From the UHGV virus genome UHGV-0158879: a DNA stretch of 14,220 nucleotides; one strand, written 5' to 3'. Source of the stretch: a virus. The number at the start of each line of letters is the position of its first letter. Position 1 is the stretch's first letter. The notes under the pieces were generated by a model. It did no database searches and was not told where the DNA came from. It saw nothing but the letters and a program-made list of their open reading frames with translations. The translations under genes were made by a program, and so were the position numbers. Shown here in pieces: positions 1 to 8,674 of this stretch.

Positions 1-49
1 TTATTACCTTATATTAATATTGGTAATATGTCTGCATGATGTTTTATAT

Positions 50-777
50 TTATTGCGTGAGCTTCGCATGATAGCTGGAGCATCTCTTGTCATCACTAAT
101 TAGCTCCGCTTTATCCGTTCTTGCCCATATTATATTTCTTTTTATTATTTTTGCTGGATTACCGGCTGCTGCACACATAGATGGCACATCTTTAGTTACA
201 ATACTCCCATACCCAATGACAGATCCGCTTCCAACAGATACCCCTTTCATTATAGAGACATTTCTCCCTACCCATACGTAACTAGATATAATGATATCTT
301 TTGCCCAATTAATCCTTTTTTTGCTATGAATATCAAATATAGGATGCCCATCTGATGCACGCAAAATAACATCTCTTGCTATCATGCAGTCATGGCCAAT
401 TGTAACATTGCACTTATCAGTGACGACTTCAAAACCTGCACCTATTGTCGTTCTTCTACCGATAATAACTTTTGAACCTTTTGTTGCGACAATATCACCT
501 TTAATCTTACTGTTTTTATGTATTCTTACGTAATTATTATCACCCCTAAATATTACGGTAAGCCATCGACACTCAACATCATCTTCTATAATAAGTTTGT
601 TATTGTTTCCATTGAACTGAACTTTATTCTCTTTGCTATTTACAAGATCTCCACATACAAAAATATTACCTGATCCATTATCATCAACGGAAAACGAGTC
701 TTGAGTCTTGAGTCTTGAGTCTTGAGTCTTGAGTCTTGAGTCTTGAGTCTTGAGTCTTGAGTCTTGAGTCTTGACAT
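50..777 (-). CDS. neuO: Hexapeptide-repeat sugar O-acetyltransferase (polysialic acid O-acetyltransferase NeuO-like), phase-variable; translationally OFF in this copy
   Basis: Minus-strand ATG at 777..775 with AGGA about 8 nt upstream, then TC plus 11 x AAGACTC (coding strand). The acetyltransferase frame (ORF track 50..385, open upstream through the repeats) shows left-handed beta-helix hexapeptide repeats (VWVGRNVSIMKGVSVGSGSVIGYGSIVTKDV). ATG to stop is 728 nt, not a multiple of 3; the ATG frame stops at TAA 642..640. AAGACTC heptads in the 5' coding region match what is described for neuO of prophage CUS-3 (from memory). Confidence 0.8.
696..772. repeat. 11 perfect tandem copies of heptanucleotide GAGTCTT (AAGACTC on the coding strand)
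   Basis: Counted directly: units begin at 696, 703, 710, 717, 724, 731, 738, 745, 752, 759, 766, with no mismatches. Unit length 7 is not a multiple of 3. Confidence 0.97.
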
Positions 778-793
778 ATTAGTATCCTACGTT

Positions 794-822
794 ATTTTAC
801 CACTAGTTACTTTTCTTGTCAT
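794..822 (-). promoter_or_regulatory. Putative sigma70 promoter for neuO
   Basis: On the minus strand ATGACA (822..817), a 17-nt spacer, then TAAAAT (799..794), followed by AGGA and the ATG at 777. By eye only. Confidence 0.35.
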
Positions 823-850
823 TAAAAAGCATTTAAATTTTTATATTTAA

Positions 851-926
851 TTTCGTTGACGTCAATGTTTTTTGCCAATGTACTTACTTCTTTATGTGAG
901 CAGTTCATATTTTTGACGCCAACGAA
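851..926 (-). repeat. 15-bp inverted repeat flanking a 46-bp spacer, between tailspike stop and neuO
   Basis: TTTCGTTGACGTCAA (851..865) and TTGACGCCAACGAAA (912..926) are reverse complements with one mismatch, which is a G-U wobble on the minus-strand transcript. 856..865 TTGACGTCAA is itself a perfect 10-bp palindrome. Confidence 0.5.
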
Positions 927-930
927 ACAT

Positions 931-3876
931 TTAGTGCTTCCCTTCTATTAAGTCTAACCTAGCTTTTATTCTTTCTATTTCTCTGCGCTGCCATGCCGCC
1001 TCGATATAGAATAAGAGATCAGGTCTGACCCCCCATCTAGATCCTGCTGGCGTTATTTCAACGCGCTCAATGATGTCTTCCATTACCATCACTGGATTAT
1101 CATCCTCATCAACAATGATGCTCCCGTCATTATCAGTCAGCGGCATTTCCCTTTGGCCAGTAATGACGTCATCATATACTGCGGGATAATCGTCATAGCA
1201 AAGAAACGCATAGCGGCATGTTGTGCTTTCTTCTTCCATGAGTCCGTGAGAAATAAGAACATCACGAAGTTGCTGCGCGATTACACCATGATGTATCCTC
1301 GCCCCTTCTTCCCCCTTTATAGCGACAGCGTTCAGCCATTTATAAGCGATATACCTGACGTCACCCCAGGCATCCAGCAATGCTTCGTCAGGAGAGACCG
1401 GCTCTGTCTTTAATGTTCCGTCACTGGTAACCACAGGATTGGAGCCAAGATAAACTGTCGAGAACCTGTTTCCCGGACCACCAAGAGCATTTACATTATC
1501 AAGATAAGGTTTAACATCTCCGTTCTCAAAAAGATGTTCGAGTGCGTTATATACCGCGCGACGTGGAGTACTGCTTCCGGAACCATGCAACGTTATCATT
1601 GCACCATCTGCTGAAGACGTTGTTTCACCGCCGCTAACGATTAATCTCTGAGCGGTAACATCATCAGACGGTACTTTCTTCGCAATAATGGCGTAATTAC
1701 CCTCAAGTTTGACTTCCGCGCGAACTTGTCCTGATGTACCTGCATGGACAGTCAGTGACTGGACGGCAACATCATCTGTGAAATCAACGGGTACAGGAAC
1801 CGTCCTCACGCCTGACGTCGACATAAAAGTAGGAAGCGTTCTGTTAGGAGTGGCTCCGTAGACAAAATCCCTTGAAACAAATTCTTCCTGTTTAATTTTC
1901 ACCCTGAAACAATACAAATCAGCCGGGTGACCATCGTGAACATAAGGATATTTTCTGTTGTTATCCCCTATGCTCCATGGGTTTAGAAAGTCTTCCCCAC
2001 CGAAAATGTAGTACAGCCAGTTGTCTTTGATACAAACTGAACCAACACCAACCGCAGAGTTAACTATTCCGCCCTGATAAATCTGATCAGTAACATTAAC
2101 CCACTCTACATTATCCAGACTCCACTCATTGACGTTAACTCTGGTCATAAATGTTCTTGGATAATTTCCTGCATAACGGTTATCAGGTTCTCCTCCTTCC
2201 CACTCACCAAATGCGCGCTCACTGCCAAAAATAATCAGCTCATCGCCAACTTTGGCAAAAGGAAGGTTTGAGTGATGAACATTATTTGGGAAGCGAAGAG
2301 AATTCCATGATGTACCTAAATCAGAGCTTCTGTGCAATGAACTACCGGGTTGAGTACTTAATGTCCCCCTGGTCGTCAGATACAGAATGCCATCATAATA
2401 TTTTACACATGGCTCAGATGCATTCGCCTCATATTCTACAGGTATGCGTCTGCGAACAAAGCTACCAGGAGAACCGAAAGCATCAGAGAAATAGAGTATC
2501 CCAAGCTCGCGTGGATCAATATCACCATTATGGTAGCCAACAGCAAAACTGTTATCGCTAATCGTCGCAAAACTGTGAATCTCAGTAACAGGAGTGCTTC
2601 CGTCAACAAAAGAAGGAATAGTTCCAAGACTGGTTTTTCTCCATGGTGACGAGTGAAATGATGTACCAAAACTCCAGTATCTACCCTCGTTATTCTGATC
2701 CACATCCTGGGTATTTTGCGTCGTAACTGTAAAAGTATTTTTATCAATAACAGTAGTCACCGTCATATTCCCGGTAACACCTGTAACACCAGAGTTTGAG
2801 AAGTTGACAAAATCACCAGCAAATAATCCGTGATCAGTAATGCGAATATAAGCGACTTGCTGATTTGCTGCTTTCGTTATACCACCATAAACGCGAAGGC
2901 TGCGACTCATTGGGCGATCCCACAACTCTGCAACCTGCAGTTTATTTCCGCTCACGGTCCGCGTCTCAATTACAGCAAAAAGGCGATTTCTGACAACCCC
3001 CATACTCATGCAGTGATAGTTAACTGTGGGATAGTTTTCATGTAAATCTGTAAGCCATTCCGGCGTTGTCCAGGTCTTCCCGTCATCTCCTGAGCGAACC
3101 CATGCAACATGGAGGTTATTTACACCATGGCGGTCTCCAGCCATAAAAGGCGCATAGATGACATTGTCATATACAAACGTTTTATCCTGCGTCCAGGCGT
3201 TGTACCACGGTGTATCTGTAATTTTAAATAACTCTCCCTGGATAAAATCTTCAGAAGCATAAAAAAGAGGCTGACCCGGTATTCTCTCAAATAAAAAACG
3301 AGCATTTTTAAATCGACTGACATCTGGAAGAGTTGATACTTTAAAAGTAAGCCCTCGCCCATCTATCTTTTCACCACCTGTTGCAACAGAAAGTAATTCT
3401 GATAGAGCTGATGTGTCATCATGAACACCATCACCAATAGCCCCCCAACCTCTTACATCATAACTGTCTCTCCATCTTGCTATCTGAAGTTTTGGGTATT
3501 TATTCGCTCCATCTGGGTCTTCTAATTGCTGCCGTAACTGATCAGGATCATACTTCAGCACATTAGGAAAATAGAACTGCTGCGCACCATACGCATCATA
3601 AACAGCCATAGAATGGCCTTGCACGGTAACGAATTTGGCAATCTGTCCGTTATATACCGGATATCCAGCAGCGTTAATGATTATTGGTTGCGAAACAGGA
3701 ATGTGAGAACCGTCTTCGTTCTCTACATAAACCTGAATCTGGTTTTCAGGATTTACCGGGTCAGTGTCAATTTTACCGATATAAATTTTGCCATTGGCTA
3801 CGGCTTTAAAAGAACGCGCCATAGTGAAGAGTTGCGAAGGCATACTCACTACAACATTGGCTGTAATGTCTGTCAT
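931..3876 (-). CDS. Tailspike: P22 gp9-type head-binding N-terminal domain fused to endosialidase-like body
   Basis: 981-aa ORF with GGAG 8 nt upstream of ATG 3876. N-terminus [11 protein letters not shown]...[33 protein letters not shown] matches the P22 tailspike N-terminus as I recall it. Two sialidase Asp-box motifs ([17 protein letters not shown]). The C-terminal ~150 aa resemble the auto-cleaving intramolecular chaperone domain of endosialidases (from memory). Confidence 0.9.
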
Positions 3877-3944
3877 TTAATTTGCTCCAGATACAAGGAA
3901 TCGCCGCAGCATTGCCACAGTGATGCATTATTAATCAAACAAAG

Positions 3945-3959
3945 AGACCACTGTGGTCT
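3945..3959. promoter_or_regulatory. Operator-like palindrome in the mnt/tailspike divergent intergenic region
   Basis: AGACCAC-T-GTGGTCT is a perfect 7-bp-arm inverted repeat; a related CCACAGTG lies at 3915..3922. It overlaps a possible -35 for mnt (a GATAAT -10 candidate at 3980..3985). The style resembles the P22 Mnt operator (GTCCAC..GTGGAC-like, from memory). Confidence 0.45.
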
Positions 3960-4022
3960 TATTGAGGATGCAACCAGCAGATAATAAGATGCCGATCCAC
4001 TCACAAAAGCGAGGCATCAAGA

Positions 4023-4274
4023 ATGGGAAGAGATGACCCGCAATTTAATCTGCGGCTACCTTACGAATTAAAGGAAAAACTAAAACAGCGAGCCAAATCC
4101 AATGGCCGCTCTCTTAATTCAGAATTAGTTCAGATAGTGACTGATGCTGTATCAAAGCCATCCAAAATTTCAGGCTATCGAGACGATGCGGAACGCATCG
4201 CTGATGAGCAGTCAGAGCTTGTTAAGAAGATGGTGTTTGATACGCTGAAGGATTTGTACAAAAAACCCACCTGA
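4023..4274 (+). CDS. mnt: Mnt-type ribbon-helix-helix repressor
   Basis: 83 aa, GAGG 8 nt upstream. The C-terminal two-thirds (NGRS.NSEL.QIV.DA.SKPS...GYR.DAER.ADEQSELVKKMVFDTLKDLYKK) closely matches P22 Mnt as I recall it. N-terminal strand DPQFNLRLP. Confidence 0.9.
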   Translation: MGRDDPQFNLRLPYELKEKLKQRAKSNGRSLNSELVQIVTDAVSKPSKISGYRDDAERIADEQSELVKKMVFDTLKDLYKKPT

Positions 4275-4290
4275 AGGTGGGTTAATTTTT
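4264..4290 (+). terminator. Rho-independent terminator after mnt
   Basis: AACCCACC-tgaa-GGTGGGTT 8-bp stem (4264..4283) followed by AATTTTT. The hairpin spans the mnt stop codon, and the A-run upstream allows bidirectional function. Confidence 0.6.
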
Positions 4291-4373
4291 GCATTTACCT
4301 GGGCCATATTGACTACTTATAAAATGAGATCAATATTTAATCGCCCAATAACGGGTGTATGTTGAGGTATATC

Positions 4374-4553
4374 ATGGCGAAAAAACCAGGTGAAAACACA
4401 GGAAAAAACGGCGGAATATACCAAGAAGTTGGCCCACGCGGCGGTAAGAAAGACAATTTTGCAACCGTCAAGGACAACGAAAGGCTTCCACCAACAACAA
4501 AGCCAGGTCATGGCTGGGTATTGGATAAGCGAACTCCAGACAGCAAAAAGTAA
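4374..4553 (+). CDS. Small conserved hypothetical protein (59 aa), Gly/Lys/Pro-rich
   Basis: ATG 4374 with GAGG 6 nt upstream, double stop TAATAA, terminator immediately downstream. Position and length match the small ORF between sieA and mnt in P22-like phages (from memory). A resemblance to YjzC-like small proteins is unverified. Confidence 0.6.
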   Translation: MAKKPGENTGKNGGIYQEVGPRGGKKDNFATVKDNERLPPTTKPGHGWVLDKRTPDSKK

Positions 4554-4559
4554 TAATCA

Positions 4560-4581
4560 AGCCGGGTCACTCCGGCTTTTT
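4560..4581 (+). terminator. Rho-independent terminator after the 59-aa gene
   Basis: AGCCGG-gtcact-CCGGCT stem followed by TTTTT. The T-run is on the plus strand only. Confidence 0.6.
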
Positions 4582-4932
4582 GATATGTCGCTCGCAGAAC
4601 TCAACAAGCCTGCTCATTAAGTAGCAGTAAGTCTCGTTGGCTCTTCCTGGTTCAACATCAACACCTACCCTTGAGCAGATATCGAATGCCATGTGAGCGC
4701 ACTCATGGGCAATAGTAGATAGTTTGCCATTGAACACGCCTATCACATGCAAAACACCATTCTCGCTACTCATTGTATGAGACGCTCCGTTGGCGTCCGA
4801 GTCATGCACGTCAACGCCAAGTTTTTGATGCAGGCGTTGCCATTCTGGAAAGTCTCTACAAAACACAATTGTACCGCTCTCAAAGAGCGGAACGAGCATC
4901 TTTGGTACGTTTCCAATGTTAACTTTTTTCAT
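4567..4932 (-). CDS. Hypothetical protein with HExxH motif (possible small zinc metallopeptidase-like)
   Basis: 121-aa ORF with AGGA 4 nt upstream of ATG 4932. Contains [11 protein letters not shown] (H-E-x-x-H) followed by a downstream Glu. The function is a guess from the motif alone. Confidence 0.5.
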
Positions 4933-4962
4933 GGTATCCTGCGCAAAACTAAGGAGGTTGGT

Positions 4963-5457
4963 GTGTCTGATTCTATGAGTTACGCTGTGCTAGTTGCCGC
5001 AACTCTATTTCTGGGGATAGGGTTGCAGATTGCGTGGTTCTTTTTTTCTAGTTTTATTAAACGTAAAAGAATTGAATCAAGGATATCTGAGATTTCTATT
5101 GCTATAGGGAAAAATGCTGAAAATCCAGAGAATGAGGCCTGCGCACTGAATTACCTTAAAGAAAAGTTTTCCCCTGAAAAATTTGAAAACAGAATTACTG
5201 ATGCTCTTGGATTGGTAATATCAGTAATTCATATGCCACTAAGTTTGCTGATAACAGTGTGGTACTTCGCCATGATCGCCGGAAGAATATTTGGTTTCAT
5301 GAATATAGAGCCTGTAGTTCTTTGGGTTCCAATGATACTGCAATTGTTGTTAAGCGTTGCTATCTTTATTTTTTCTGTTTTTATAAAAATTGTCTTCGGA
5401 AGATACCCCGGAGAAGCAAAGGGATTTAATAAAGAATTCATAAAAACTATAAAATAA
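4963..5457 (+). CDS. Small inner-membrane protein with 3 predicted TM helices, in the sieA (superinfection exclusion) position
   Basis: AAGGAGG at 4951..4957; start is GTG 4963 or ATG 4975 (the ORF-track start at 4747 overlaps the minus-strand gene and is rejected). Hydrophobic segments [48 protein letters not shown] and [30 protein letters not shown]-rich, antisense to the late genes. SieA assignment is positional only. Confidence 0.6.
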
Positions 5458-5479
5458 ATGCCGTCCTTGGCTTACAGTG

Positions 5480-7321
5480 CTACTGCCGGGTAGCTTCGTT
5501 AACTAAGAGCGGGCGCACGGCAGTAGCCGCCTGATTTAGCGCTCTTTCATAAGCTGGCGTTCCAGCTTTAGTGTTTGCCAGACGTAAGAGCGCATTCCTT
5601 GCTGCTTTGGATTCATACAAGCGCATCATTGCACCGAAACCAGCCTCAAGCCCCATTGATACGCCAAGAGTCGTAGTTGCGCCAATCGTCCTTATCCTGT
5701 TGGCTTGCGATTGCCCCGTCTGAGTTACTACATTTGCGGTGTCTGATCTTGCTGCTTGCTGTAGAACTTCATGAAGAGCATCAAGTTCTTTCATGTGCTT
5801 TCCAGAAAAAATAGTGTTGTAAATTTCACCGCCTGACTGAGATTTCAGCTTATTAACTTCCGTGATGAACTTGGCTGGAGAGTCACCGGCCTTTTCCGCT
5901 ATTTTGCTGACGTAAGCTGCACGCATAGCATCTTTCCCTTTATCATCCAATGCGCTCCAGATTCGTTTCACGTCAGATGGTTTTCTGCTTAATACAACAG
6001 TATTTATAAGTTCAGGACTGGCTTCACTGCTTGCCTTGTTGAGCTTGTTAGCAATGTTTTTATTAAGCACCTTATTATAAACGTTTGCATAATCGGAATT
6101 TGCTTTAAGGTATTTTGCTGCGTCTGAAGCACCGAGGTTTTTGGCAACTGCGTTACGAAGGTCTTTTGACATTGCATTCTCTACCATATTGGTAGCTGCT
6201 TTTGCCTGGTTGGGGAAGACCATGGCATCTCCCTGAACATTAGATCTAAATGCTGTTCTGTGCTGGCGCAAGAGATCAAACGTAACATCCAAATCAGTTG
6301 CAGGGTTTGCTAATTCTTCACGTAGGTTACGCAAGGATGTAAGCAGGTTTTGATTGGCAGAAGTCCCAAGCCGTTCCTGTCTTGCGATCGCTGTATTCAG
6401 AGCATTCATGGTATTTGTGGTATCAACTGCGGCATTACCCATTTTATTGGTGACGTCATTGATAACAGCGCCAGCGGCATCCTTCCGTCCCCTTAACGTG
6501 GTGGTCAGAGATCTCACCACATCATCAGGGTTGTACTCACCAAAACGGTCAAAATAATTGCTTACCAGCTTACTACGCGTTGCATATTGCTCCGCTCGCT
6601 TTGAGCCTGTCCCGAGCAAAGCCCCCTCAGCATCCTGAGTAAGTCCGCGAGTGAAAGCATTTTTCGGCGGGATAACATCAGATGTCATTGGTGTCACGCC
6701 CATCGATTCTGATGTGGCAATTTTCTTTGCCACTTCTGGCGCAATATCACCTTTTATAGCCGTTATTCCACGCCCTATTCCCTTTGCTGCTGCGGAAAGA
6801 ACACCCTGAGCGGCAAGGTTAACTCCGGCATTTTTAGCTGCATTTTGTGCGAAATCACCTTTCTGATTTGCGGCCTCTGCCAGTGATCCAATAGCCATGC
6901 TTCCTGCCGTTCCAACTCCTGGAACTAAATACCCGCCAATTGTTTCTCCAGCTTGAGCGTAGGGGTCTGTCGGTCTGTCTACTGGACGATAAACATCATC
7001 CAAAACCTTGGGGCCACCAAGCCCCTGACTGATTGCATTAATCAGACTTGCGCCGCCCTGTAATACGTCAAATGGTATGTTTACCAGACCACGACCAGCC
7101 TGTTCTGCAATTTGCCCTGCACTTTGACCACCAGTGAGCCAATCGCCAGCTTGTTGCATCAATGATGGTTCTTCCCGTGTTGGTGCATTATTGGCCTGAT
7201 TAACTGTTTGTTGCTGAACAGCCTGACCAGCAAAATACTCATCAATGGCGGTGCCAATATCTTCCGTGCTCGTACCATCAGGGAAGGTAAATGTCTTACC
7301 GTTTGCAGTTACTTTCATCAT
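5480..7321 (-). CDS. Ejection (DNA-transfer) protein, P22 gp16-like
   Basis: 612/613 aa, Ala/Gly/Gln-rich. N-terminus [22 protein letters not shown] as I recall for P22 gp16. ATGATG start overlaps the upstream stop (ATGA), and it lies directly downstream of the gp20-like gene as in P22. Confidence 0.8.
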
Positions 7322-8673
7322 TCCACCGTAAATTGAATGCCTGATTTTGACGTGTAGCTACCTCCTGCTGATTGCTGAGTAGCTGGCTGTTGCCTTGATG
7401 ATTTCTTCCCGCCATTACCGACATTAACGTTATATTGCTGGTTGTAATTGTCGGTATATTGCTGAATGTCGCGCATTGATTGTTGCAGTGCTTCAGGGCT
7501 TGAGAAATCAACCTGTGGCATACCTTGAAAATACATCTTTGCTTCTGCAACGGTGTTGATACCGGATGCCCCCATGTCTCTGGCTGCTGCAATGCCCTGA
7601 TTCTGCATCTTTCCTTGGATTCGCTGTGCAGCGTTGTATAGTTTCCTCTGATCACCACCAGATGCACGGCTACGAATATCTGCACCAAGAGCAGGAGAAC
7701 CTGAAGAGCCTGTAATGCCAGTCATGAAGCCAAGATCGTCAATTGATGCACCAGAAATTGCATCAAGATCTTTCTTCATTGCGTAATTCTGCGCGCTTGC
7801 TGCCGATGTAGCCGGAGCGGCAATAGAACCAGCAGGAACGCGAACCATATTCCCCTCGTTGTCGATACCTTCGTAGAACGCATTAGCCCCAGCGCCGTGA
7901 AGCTTCCCGCCTACCGTTACAGTTCTGCCATCTGCTAACTGAACTGTACGCTCATTATTCCCAACCGCCCCTTTCATTGATGCTCTCTGCATCGATAAAT
8001 CCTGACCGCGCATCGTGATATTCTGACCACGCGCTGTTAGCGCCTCGCCAGCCTGATTGCTGCGGATTGTCTCTGCCAGTCTGCCTCGGTCAATCTCACG
8101 ACCAGCTATCTTGTCCTGAACATTGAAGTAATCAATCGGACCAAGCGCAGCCATCCCAAGGTGATCAACAAACTCACCAAATCCTGAAGGATTCTGCTGA
8201 TACATCTGAGCAACGCTGTTAGGGTCAACACCGACGCGAGTCAGTTCCTTGGCGTTGTTTTGCAGCCATGATTGCATTGCTTCTGGAGACGATGACGCAA
8301 GGCGTGCGCCAGCCGCTAAGGTGCCGATAGAATTACGCTGGTCTTCATCAATGAATCCCATGCCTTTACGAACAGATTCAATCTGGTCTGGATATTGAGT
8401 AGCCAACTGACGCAAAGCACCGCGATCACCAGACGCATAAGCTTTAGCGTATGCCTGCTGAAATTCTTTCTGCCGCTGAGCCTGCTTTTCCTGCTGAAAA
8501 ACACCCGCAATACCTGAAAGGCCTTGCAAAGCAGTCAGCCCAACATTGTTAGCGCCTGAACGCTCAATATCATTGTTCTGCCTGATAAGCTGAAGCGTAT
8601 TGCCGATGTCATTTACGCTCGGAGCGTTTGAGTTGACACCACCGATACCAGCCAACAATCGGCATTTATTCAC
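7318..8673 (-). CDS. Ejection protein, P22 gp20-like; starts at GTG 1 nt after the terminase stop, possibly N-terminally truncated
   Basis: 451-aa low-complexity protein of gp20 size, positioned before gp16. The only start is GTG 8673; the frame is closed by a TGA about 13 codons upstream with no ATG. Confidence 0.65.
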
Positions 8674-8674
8674 C

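Follow-up and report, generated by a model that had tools for sequence, protein, structure and literature searches.

The closest described relative of the tailspike encoded in the 14,220-nt stretch of viral DNA analyzed here (UHGV virus genome UHGV-0158879; hereafter, the window) is SiaK1 (endoN-CUS3; ABQ88383; CAJ29292) of the E. coli K1 prophage CUS-3, in which a P22-type N-terminus, an endosialidase body, and a chaperone domain are joined, as they are here; its gene neighbors neuO with its AAGACTC repeat and has a boundary sequence upstream, again as here. Stummeyer et al. (2006, Mol Microbiol) reportedly described an endosialidase body that carries a P22-type N-terminus. According to a review, the N-terminal domain is common to CUS-3, HK620, Sf6, and P22, and the CUS-3 body is an endosialidase (PMC5380687); moreover, the CUS-3 siaK1 record (CP000711) carries the GO term 'endo-alpha-sialidase activity [IDA]' (PMID 16689790). 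The tailspikes of P22 (gp9), Sf6 (gp14), and HK620 have an N-terminal head-binding domain that is homologous to residues 1-113 of the tailspike described here and docks on the P22-type tail hub; however, they carry O-antigen endoglycosidase bodies built as a right-handed parallel beta-helix and have neither a sialidase propeller nor Peptidase_S74. Conversely, endoNF of K1F (gp17; 1V0E, 3GVJ-L, 3GW6) shares the catalytic body, the stalk, and the self-cleaving C-terminal domain but its N-terminal adaptor (residues 1-245) is of the T7 gp17 type and not of the P22 gp9 type; compared with endoNF, the tailspike described here also has a 7-residue insertion in the propeller region (FVDGSTP, about residues 423-429). 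Finally, the tail fiber of vB_EcoP_ZX5 (Uetakevirus, epsilon15-like; QTH80017) shares both the endosialidase body and the chaperone domain (99.5% nucleotide identity over window positions 963-3355; 95.6% amino acid identity over residues 134-980), while its N-terminal adaptor of ~190 residues matches no Pfam profile and bears no relationship to the P22-type domain. The occurrence of the body at 99.5% DNA identity on an epsilon15-like phage implies very recent exchange, and the ZX5 fiber is a further case of the same endosialidase body on another virion chassis.

In the window, the tailspike gene corresponds to exactly one ORF on the minus strand, with its ATG at 3876 and its stop codon at 931-933 (Table 1); translation of the plus strand of the same interval gives many stops. 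The gene has 99.1% nucleotide identity to CUS-3 siaK1 (CP000711) over 100% of its length, and the two proteins, which are of equal length, are identical at 971 of 981 residues. The 10 substitutions are V9I, P43T, I59V, P121T, A207V, D454G, V480A, G767R, T807I, and A832T (window allele first), and none of them falls on the catalytic and cleavage residues that we checked (H250, E488, R503, R554, R804, S818, and K823). Domains were assigned using a Pfam profile search and a PDB sequence search; the domain E-values range from 1e-10 to 1e-233, and, at the level of these sequence comparisons, chance is ruled out as the source of the matches. No result in our analysis contradicts the identification as an endosialidase tailspike. 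Altogether, we consider it about 95% probable that the ORF encodes a CUS-3-type endosialidase tailspike (siaK1/endoN-CUS3), i.e., a homotrimeric phage receptor-binding enzyme, whose trimeric state and activity would be those of its homologs. The mosaic of a P22-type adaptor and an endosialidase is already known, because the protein is nearly identical to the assayed CUS-3 SiaK1, the architecture is published, and neuO is a known CUS-3 cargo gene. As a discovery, the locus matters little; the mosaic is a textbook case of modular tailspike evolution, and it has already been assayed. What is new are local details, i.e., the K1 locus of the host, the att-lambda carrier, an 8.5-kb deletion, and the phase-OFF state of neuO.

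Table 1. Features of the tailspike locus; positions are those of the window, and residues are those of the tailspike protein
Feature	Positions	Strand	Residues	Basis or remarks
neuO, polysialic-acid O-acetyltransferase gene	50..777	-		start ATG 777-775; hexapeptide transferase; 99.6% nucleotide identity to CUS-3 1540-2313
poly-psi tract, slipped-strand phase switch of neuO	696..774	-		11 copies of AAGACTC (GAGTCTT on +); TRF period 7, 11.3 copies, 100% match
Tailspike ORF (allele of CUS-3 siaK1, endosialidase tailspike)	931..3876	-	1-981	ORF call, 981 aa + stop
Intramolecular chaperone/autocleavage domain	934..1425	-	818-981	Peptidase_S74 PF13884 at 818-878, E=1.6e-10; 3GW6
Stalk, triple beta-helix/tailspike domain (End_tail_spike)	1426..1890	-	663-817	PF12219, E=7.5e-78
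Six-bladed sialidase beta-propeller, catalytic (End_beta_propel)	1891..3240	-	213-662	PF12217, E=7.9e-233
Asp-box 2, SSDLGTSW	2305..2328	-	517-524	motif scan
Beta-barrel (lectin-like) inserted in propeller (End_beta_barrel)	2659..2907	-	324-406	PF12195, E=1.2e-46
Asp-box 1, SGDDGKTW	3070..3093	-	262-269	motif scan
Endosialidase N-terminal extension (End_N_terminal)	3241..3441	-	146-212	PF12218, E=8.9e-37
Linker and mosaic junction of P22-type and endosialidase modules	3442..3537	-	114-145	P22/Sf6 matches stop at 115-127; endoNF matches start at 145
P22 gp9-type head-binding (virion adaptor) domain	3538..3876	-	1-113	Head_binding PF09008, E=1.2e-66, full length; PDB matches
Right edge of neuO-siaK1 cassette, last 47 CUS-3-like nt upstream of tailspike start	3877..3923			blastn stops at 3923 (CUS-3 5518)
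19-nt filler at junction of 8.5-kb deletion	8661..8679			comparison with intact SW4848 sibling (L003 28745-37282 absent here)

As in CUS-3, neuO with its AAGACTC tract lies immediately downstream of the tailspike gene. A preliminary description of the locus from the sequence alone had proposed that the tailspike fits functionally with the adjacent capsule-modifying neuO; consistently, neuO is a known phase-variable cargo gene of CUS-3. According to the rule described in the literature, neuO is ON only if the number of heptad copies is divisible by 3. The gene in the window has 11 repeats, its body, although intact, is not in frame with the ATG, and neuO is, therefore, phase OFF. The RefSeq version of EC931 has 35 repeats, a difference that may reflect either real heterogeneity in the population or a collapsed assembly. 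The 99% match to CUS-3 is confined to a neuO-siaK1 cassette of ~4.25 kb (CUS-3 coordinates 1266-5518). The right edge of this cassette lies inside the CUS-3 'boundary sequence bsq1' (annotated 5471-5571), and at the other end, similarity to CUS-3 stops within a leftover 84-nt piece of its int gene.

The carrier of the cassette is a P22-like prophage other than CUS-3. Its integration site is att-lambda (between ybhB and ybhC) and not argW; the combination of the argW site, the CUS-3 integrase, and the CUS-3 backbone genes is not found in it, and the two prophages also differ in the immI region and the ejection-protein genes. Furthermore, the carrier, unlike CUS-3, is without morphogenesis genes. 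The locus is the CUS-3 cassette in another P22-like prophage and not CUS-3 itself. It illustrates how one capsule-specific cassette can occur on a second P22-like backbone with a different attachment site, and it is relevant for genome surveys in which neuO or siaK1 is read as 'CUS-3 prophage present', as the cassette can occupy non-CUS-3 or defective prophages. In this view, neuO and the endosialidase gene behave as a portable pair that moved from a CUS-3-type, argW-integrating phage to an att-lambda-integrating P22-like phage, with the 84-nt integrase relic as a scar. A more far-reaching scenario is that the stranded pair has since been kept and used by the host for capsule remodeling rather than as a phage part; we regard this scenario as very unlikely.

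What remains of the carrier is a remnant of ~18.5 kb that is bounded by the att-lambda core repeats TTAGTATAAAAAAGC. Strain SW4848 has, at this site, an intact sibling prophage that encodes an identical tailspike protein together with all P22-type morphogenesis genes, and comparison with this sibling resolved the deletion junction and a second breakpoint at the base level. The 8.5-kb deletion removed the homologs of gp7, gp14, gp26, gp10, gp4, coat, scaffold, and portal and clipped the genes for the large terminase and the gp20-like ejection protein; a second loss affects the regulatory, replication, and late-activator region. In a prophage of which much was destroyed by these two large deletions and an IS5, the tailspike ORF is fully intact, and neuO is intact except for its phase switch. 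The remnant is, thus, a base-resolved case of prophage decay in which host-range and capsule-modification genes are left intact. The tail hub genes gp4, gp10, and gp26, which are present in the SW4848 sibling and CUS-3, are among those deleted here. Because the virion genes are deleted, this copy of the tailspike cannot be mounted on the virion of its own prophage. Hence, the preliminary proposal of a depolymerase on a P22-like virion stands for the design of the protein and for the intact relatives but not for the resident prophage, which has no portal, coat, or tail hub genes: The tailspike is a member of the P22 gp9-type (Lederbergvirus) family; however, the locus is not a functional phage. 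Most likely, the tailspike gene is intact but stranded, a fossil of recent origin that does not serve as a virion component, and presumably silent in the remnant.

Alternatively, the host may have domesticated the tailspike as a free endosialidase that acts with neuO in remodeling or shedding the host's own K1 capsule, or that is directed at other K1 strains or phages as a weapon or receptor blocker. This idea would account for an intact ORF amid two large deletions and an IS5, for an adjacent neuO with no defect other than its normal phase switch, and for the K1 genotype of the host. The latter was established by starting from neuS of BEN2908 and locating the kps/neu locus directly in the pheV island of EC931: the host, which is E. 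coli EC931 or a strain nearly identical to it, has the full K1 capsule locus kpsFEDUCS-neuSECABD-kpsTM. In the literature, we found EC931 only in papers on resistance plasmids and found no serotype for it. However, the sequences flanking the deletion are 99.98-100% identical between the remnant and the SW4848 prophage (2 mismatches in 7,965 nt and 0 in 4,840 nt), arguing that the decay is very recent and, therefore, that an intact ORF of 3 kb is expected in the absence of selection. Moreover, among 5,426 complete genomes of E. coli, only 1 has the deleted form, so that retention across a lineage is not seen. The late-gene activator region is lost, and a scan around the gene for an independent tailspike promoter gave 16 promoter-like matches versus 11.8±4.1 expected, so that no dedicated promoter stands out from the background. 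Given that the deletion is recent and confined to a single genome, we consider domestication highly improbable.

No better placed is the idea that the tailspike still functions as a virion component, in which case heads and tail hubs would come from another resident or superinfecting P22-like prophage and, head-binding domains being interchangeable, the spike would be taken up in trans. The conservation of the head-binding domain across P22, Sf6, HK620, and CUS-3 fits with this possibility, and 16 sites in the EC931 chromosome show matches to segments of the window, supporting that other lambdoid prophages exist in the host. However, the late activator would also be needed in trans, and the tailspike gene is cut off from the promoter of the late operon. 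Accordingly, we give in-trans use as little credit as domestication and favor the interpretation that the intact gene is stranded in a recently decayed prophage.

The architecture of the protein follows, in every element, the preliminary description (which gave no strand), in which the first ~110 residues were likened to the P22 gp9 head-binding domain and the remainder was described as a polysialic-acid depolymerase with two Asp-boxes and an auto-cleaving chaperone domain at the C-terminus. For the first module, the full-length PF09008 match (Table 1) is accompanied by PDB matches of residues 1-118 to Sf6 gp14 (7SG7; E=9e-65) and P22 gp9 (1LKT/2VNL/2XC1; E=1e-45 to 1e-50). The likeness to the ZX5 fiber starts at residue 134, i.e., within the linker. 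The endosialidase body (residues 146-817) is complete and has the features of the phage endosialidases (endo-N-acetylneuraminidase, GH58; endoNF/endoNE/CUS-3 type): Each of the four endosialidase-specific Pfam domains is matched over its entire length and far above threshold. A search against endosialidase structures, suggested earlier for residues ~120-830, returned K1F endoNF (1V0E/3GVL) over residues 145-817 with E=0, and the two proteins are collinear over 146-817, with 65.5% amino acid identity to K1F gp17 in this catalytic part. The two Asp-boxes are both present and are the only matches to S-x-D-x-G-x-x-[WFY] in the whole protein. In the alignment with 1V0E/3GVJ, H250, E488, R503, and R554 align with endoNF H350, E581, R596, and R647, respectively, the last of which is an Ala in chain 3GVJ. 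Glu581, Arg596, Arg647, and His350 are what we take to be the active site of endoNF (numbering presumably as in Stummeyer et al. 2005). That the body is instead an exo-sialidase or another glycosidase not acting on polysialic acid, i.e., an ordinary sialidase or a depolymerase of a different capsule, has close to no probability: Asp-boxes occur in every bacterial sialidase and in many beta-propellers of other kinds, and the BNR_2 profile matches only below threshold, but the four endosialidase-specific domains including the beta-barrel insertion and the stalk, the identity to the endoNF catalytic part and to the assayed CUS-3 SiaK1 (99%), and the close phage relatives, which among those listed are all K1 phages or annotated endosialidases, argue against it. 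A propeller of a non-endosialidase type was likewise rejected on the Pfam and PDB evidence.

In addition to the PF13884 match ('chaperone of endosialidase'), the C-terminal part of the protein, which includes an intramolecular chaperone autocleavage (ICA) domain homologous to endoNF 911-1064, matches the endoNF S911A chaperone construct 3GW6 over residues 698-979 (E=8e-95; E=1.3e-67 for the last 195 residues). S818 (codon 1423-1425) falls on the mutated A911 of 3GW6, K823 (codon 1408-1410) falls on endoNF K916, and R804 in the stalk aligns with endoNF R897; thus, the comparison with the auto-cleaving chaperone family places all three residues in the expected columns. The roles of the Ser-Lys dyad (endoNF S911/K916) and of the stalk Arg R897 have been described (PMC8326128). 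Based on this alignment, cleavage is predicted to occur N-terminal to S818, with K823 as the dyad partner. By homology with K1F endoNF and P22 gp9, we suggest the following mechanism. The C-terminal domain (residues 818-981) would act as an intramolecular chaperone for trimerization and folding of the stalk, and autocleavage dependent on Ser818 and Lys823 would then free this domain. Residues 1-113 would attach the mature trimer to a P22-like podovirus at its gp4/gp10/gp26 tail hub, and the beta-propeller, beta-barrel, and stalk would bind the capsular alpha-2,8-polysialic acid of E. coli K1 and cut it internally, allowing the virion to tunnel to the outer membrane. As a separate observation, we notice that T807, which is substituted relative to CUS-3, is located three residues from R804.

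The interval 931–3876 of the window contains exactly one ORF, on the minus strand (ATG at 3876, stop at 931–933), which encodes a protein of 981 aa; the plus strand of this interval carries stops throughout. In a Pfam-A profile search, the product matched six collinear domains (see the table). Based on PDB sequence searches, residues 1–118 match the head-binding domains of Sf6 gp14 and P22 gp9 (E = 9e-65 to 1e-45), residues 145–817 match the K1F endosialidase endoNF (1V0E, 3GVJ/K/L; E = 0), and residues 698–979 match the C-terminal chaperone construct of endoNF (3GW6; E = 8e-95); the catalytic part is 65.5% identical to K1F gp17 (tblastn). The preliminary description had proposed a P22 gp9-type head-binding domain over the first ~110 residues, a sialidase body with two Asp-boxes, and a C-terminal auto-cleaving chaperone domain. 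The profile and structure searches recovered each of these putative parts, and the S-x-D-x-G-x-x-[WFY] pattern is present in the protein only at the two Asp-boxes quoted. Altogether, the observation is confirmed, and its interpretation is supported.

Features of the tailspike protein and of the surrounding prophage genes
Feature	Tailspike residues	Window position	Strand	Pfam-A E value	Remark
Head_binding (PF09008)	1–113			1.2e-66	
End_N_terminal	146–212			8.9e-37	
End_beta_propel	213–662			7.9e-233	
End_beta_barrel	324–406			1.2e-46	inserted within propeller
End_tail_spike	663–817			7.5e-78	
Peptidase_S74	818–878			1.6e-10	'chaperone of endosialidase'
Asp-box SGDDGKTW	262–269	3070–3093			
Asp-box SSDLGTSW	517–524	2305–2328			
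neuO		50–777	minus		downstream of tailspike; AAGACTC poly-psi tract two bases after ATG
Arc/Mnt-fusion repressor		4023–4274	plus		within immI-like region 3877–5479
gp20-like ejection protein (PF16928)		7318–8673			N-terminally clipped by 9 codons; now GTG start
Large terminase		8675–10000			C-terminally clipped by ~31 codons; at deletion junction

In the PDB alignments, E488, R503, R554, and H250 of the tailspike occupy the columns of endoNF Glu581, Arg596, Arg647, and His350, which we take to be the catalytic positions of Stummeyer et al. 2005; the Arg647 column is Ala in the mutant chain 3GVJ. At the stalk/chaperone boundary, the tailspike continues SDGTLK from S818 and, in the alignment to 3GW6, S818 lies on the S911A position, K823 on K916, and R804 on R897. 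In endoNF, S911 and K916 form the Ser-Lys autocleavage dyad, and R897 is a stalk residue coupling cleavage to correct folding (PMC8326128). By homology, and from the sequence features seen here, we infer that (i) the C-terminal domain would serve as an intramolecular chaperone for trimerization and stalk folding and would then be released through S818/K823 autocleavage; (ii) the mature trimer would dock via residues 1–113 onto a P22-like podovirus at its gp4/gp10/gp26 tail hub; and (iii) the propeller, barrel, and stalk would bind and endo-cleave α-2,8-polysialic acid, which would let the virion penetrate the K1 capsule.

Over its full length, the tailspike gene is 99.1% identical at the DNA level to siaK1 of Enterobacteria phage CUS-3 (CP000711), which is labeled 'endosialidase tailspike protein' and annotated with the GO term endo-alpha-sialidase activity (IDA, from PMID 16689790). 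The CUS-3 product also has 981 aa and differs at 10 positions (9, 43, 59, 121, 207, 454, 480, 767, 807, and 832), none of which falls on E488, R503, R554, H250, R804, S818, or K823. Judged by sequence, the window tailspike is an allele of CUS-3 siaK1; together with the endosialidase Pfam series and the endoNF match, this identity supports a predicted polysialic acid depolymerase. The N-terminal domain is common to the tailspikes of CUS-3, HK620, Sf6, and P22 (review PMC5380687; see also PMC6966330), and the idea of a P22-type adaptor on an endosialidase is stated explicitly in that review, with 2006 work cited there. Given the near-identity to siaK1, this review, and neuO as known CUS-3 cargo, the finding is therefore already known, as is every part of the tailspike interpretation. 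The added value is modest: the carrier is a non-CUS-3 prophage at att-lambda, an int fragment remains as a scar, an epsilon15-like phage carries a twin, and the decay of the carrier prophage is resolved to the base.

The window matches the chromosome of the E. coli urine isolate EC931 (NZ_CP049118.1) with one mismatch (an SNP at 10277) plus a neuO repeat-number difference. At pheV, EC931 has the whole K1 capsule locus (kpsFEDUCS, the polysialyltransferase gene neuS, neuE, neuC, neuA, neuB, neuD, and kpsTM), and the host therefore has the expected capsule type. The carrier prophage sits between ybhB and ybhC, not at argW; a copy of the lambda att core, TTAGTATAAAAAAGC, lies on either side of it, the two being ~18.5 kb apart.

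The stretch shared with CUS-3 at ~99% is restricted to CUS-3 coordinates 1266–5518 and comprises an 84-nt int relic, neuO, siaK1, and 47 nt of upstream 'boundary sequence'. Just left of the window start in EC931 (14727–14810 of the chromosome stretch L002), an 84-nt piece matches the 3' end of the integrase gene of CUS-3 at 99.7% identity. This int fragment lies between the att-lambda core and neuO and is a scar that marks the transfer of the cassette from a CUS-3-type phage to a P22-like phage integrating at att-lambda. Beyond 3923, the immI region and the ejection-protein genes are unlike those of CUS-3. Thus, the neuO-siaK1 pair is a cassette moved onto another P22-like backbone. The immI-like region lacks the antirepressor gene (ant) present in CUS-3; it also contains a strong bidirectional terminator hairpin at 4264–4283, and several of its small ORFs (e.g., 4567–4932, minus strand) have no Pfam match. 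At the position of P22 gp16, 5480–7321 encodes a 613-aa protein labeled hypothetical in RefSeq, which had no match in a Pfam search and whose gene resembles that of CUS-3 only in patches (93% nt identity across 246 nt).

The spike also occurs elsewhere. 'vB_EcoP-720R6' (ON470605.1) has the same spike (99.6% nt) at the same site but lacks neuO and has a different short ORF instead; because the record includes host uvrB, bioABCDF, and ybhB, it represents a prophage region at att-lambda. The epsilon15-like phage vB_EcoP_ZX5 (Uetakevirus) has the same endosialidase body (99.5% nt over window 963–3355). Its tail fiber of 1039 aa (L004 3972–7091, in the phage's own coordinates) carries this body and the chaperone domain at residues 193–1039, whereas its N-terminal adaptor of ~190 residues is unrelated to that of the window tailspike and has no Pfam match. 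The likeness to ZX5 implies that podovirus genera exchanged this module very recently.

Strain SW4848 has an intact sibling prophage at the same site, with an identical tailspike protein (WP_058905271.1) and the full P22-type set of gp7, gp14, gp26, gp10, and gp4 homologues, coat, scaffold, portal, and terminase. The window is 99.975% identical to SW4848 over 696–8660 and 100% identical over 8680–13519; the 8.5 kb between these stretches in SW4848 (L003 28745–37282, in its own coordinates) are missing and replaced by a 19-nt filler at 8661–8679. Every head and tail-hub gene (portal, scaffold, coat, and the gp4, gp10, gp26, gp14, and gp7 homologues) is lost with this deletion, which fuses the clipped terminase almost directly to the clipped gp20-like gene. 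Mounting on a P22-like virion, as initially proposed, thus holds for how the protein is built, but the spike encoded here cannot be assembled into virions of its own prophage. At a second breakpoint (13519/13520), a truncated lambda-family holin is joined to the anti-RecBCD gene abc2 and a DUF5405 fragment, and the Q-type antiterminator, nin, replication, and immunity regions of the SW4848 sibling are therefore lost; in EC931, an IS5 follows the DUF5405 fragment just past the window end. The deleted configuration occurs in just 1/5,426 complete E. coli genomes, and its flanks hardly differ from those of the intact sibling; the decay is therefore recent, and the intact 3-kb tailspike ORF needs no selective explanation.

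The functional fit with the adjacent capsule-modifying gene holds: the downstream gene is neuO (99.6% identical to that of CUS-3), described in the literature as encoding a phase-variable polysialic acid O-acetyltransferase and as a cargo gene of CUS-3. Phase-ON NeuO O-acetylates the same polymer that the tailspike is predicted to cleave. O-acetylation by NeuO is reported to lower susceptibility to a lytic K1 phage, which has been read as superinfection exclusion (PMC13001214). According to the literature, neuO is ON only if the heptad copy number is divisible by 3. The window neuO has 11 heptads (696–774), placing the ATG at 777 out of frame with an otherwise intact NeuO body. RefSeq EC931 has 35 copies of AAGACTC, SW4848 has 23, and CUS-3 has 19; each of the four is a phase-OFF number. 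The disagreement between 11 copies in the window and 35 in RefSeq EC931 could reflect real slippage heterogeneity or assembly repeat collapse. The copy numbers 11, 23, and 35 are spaced by multiples of 12.
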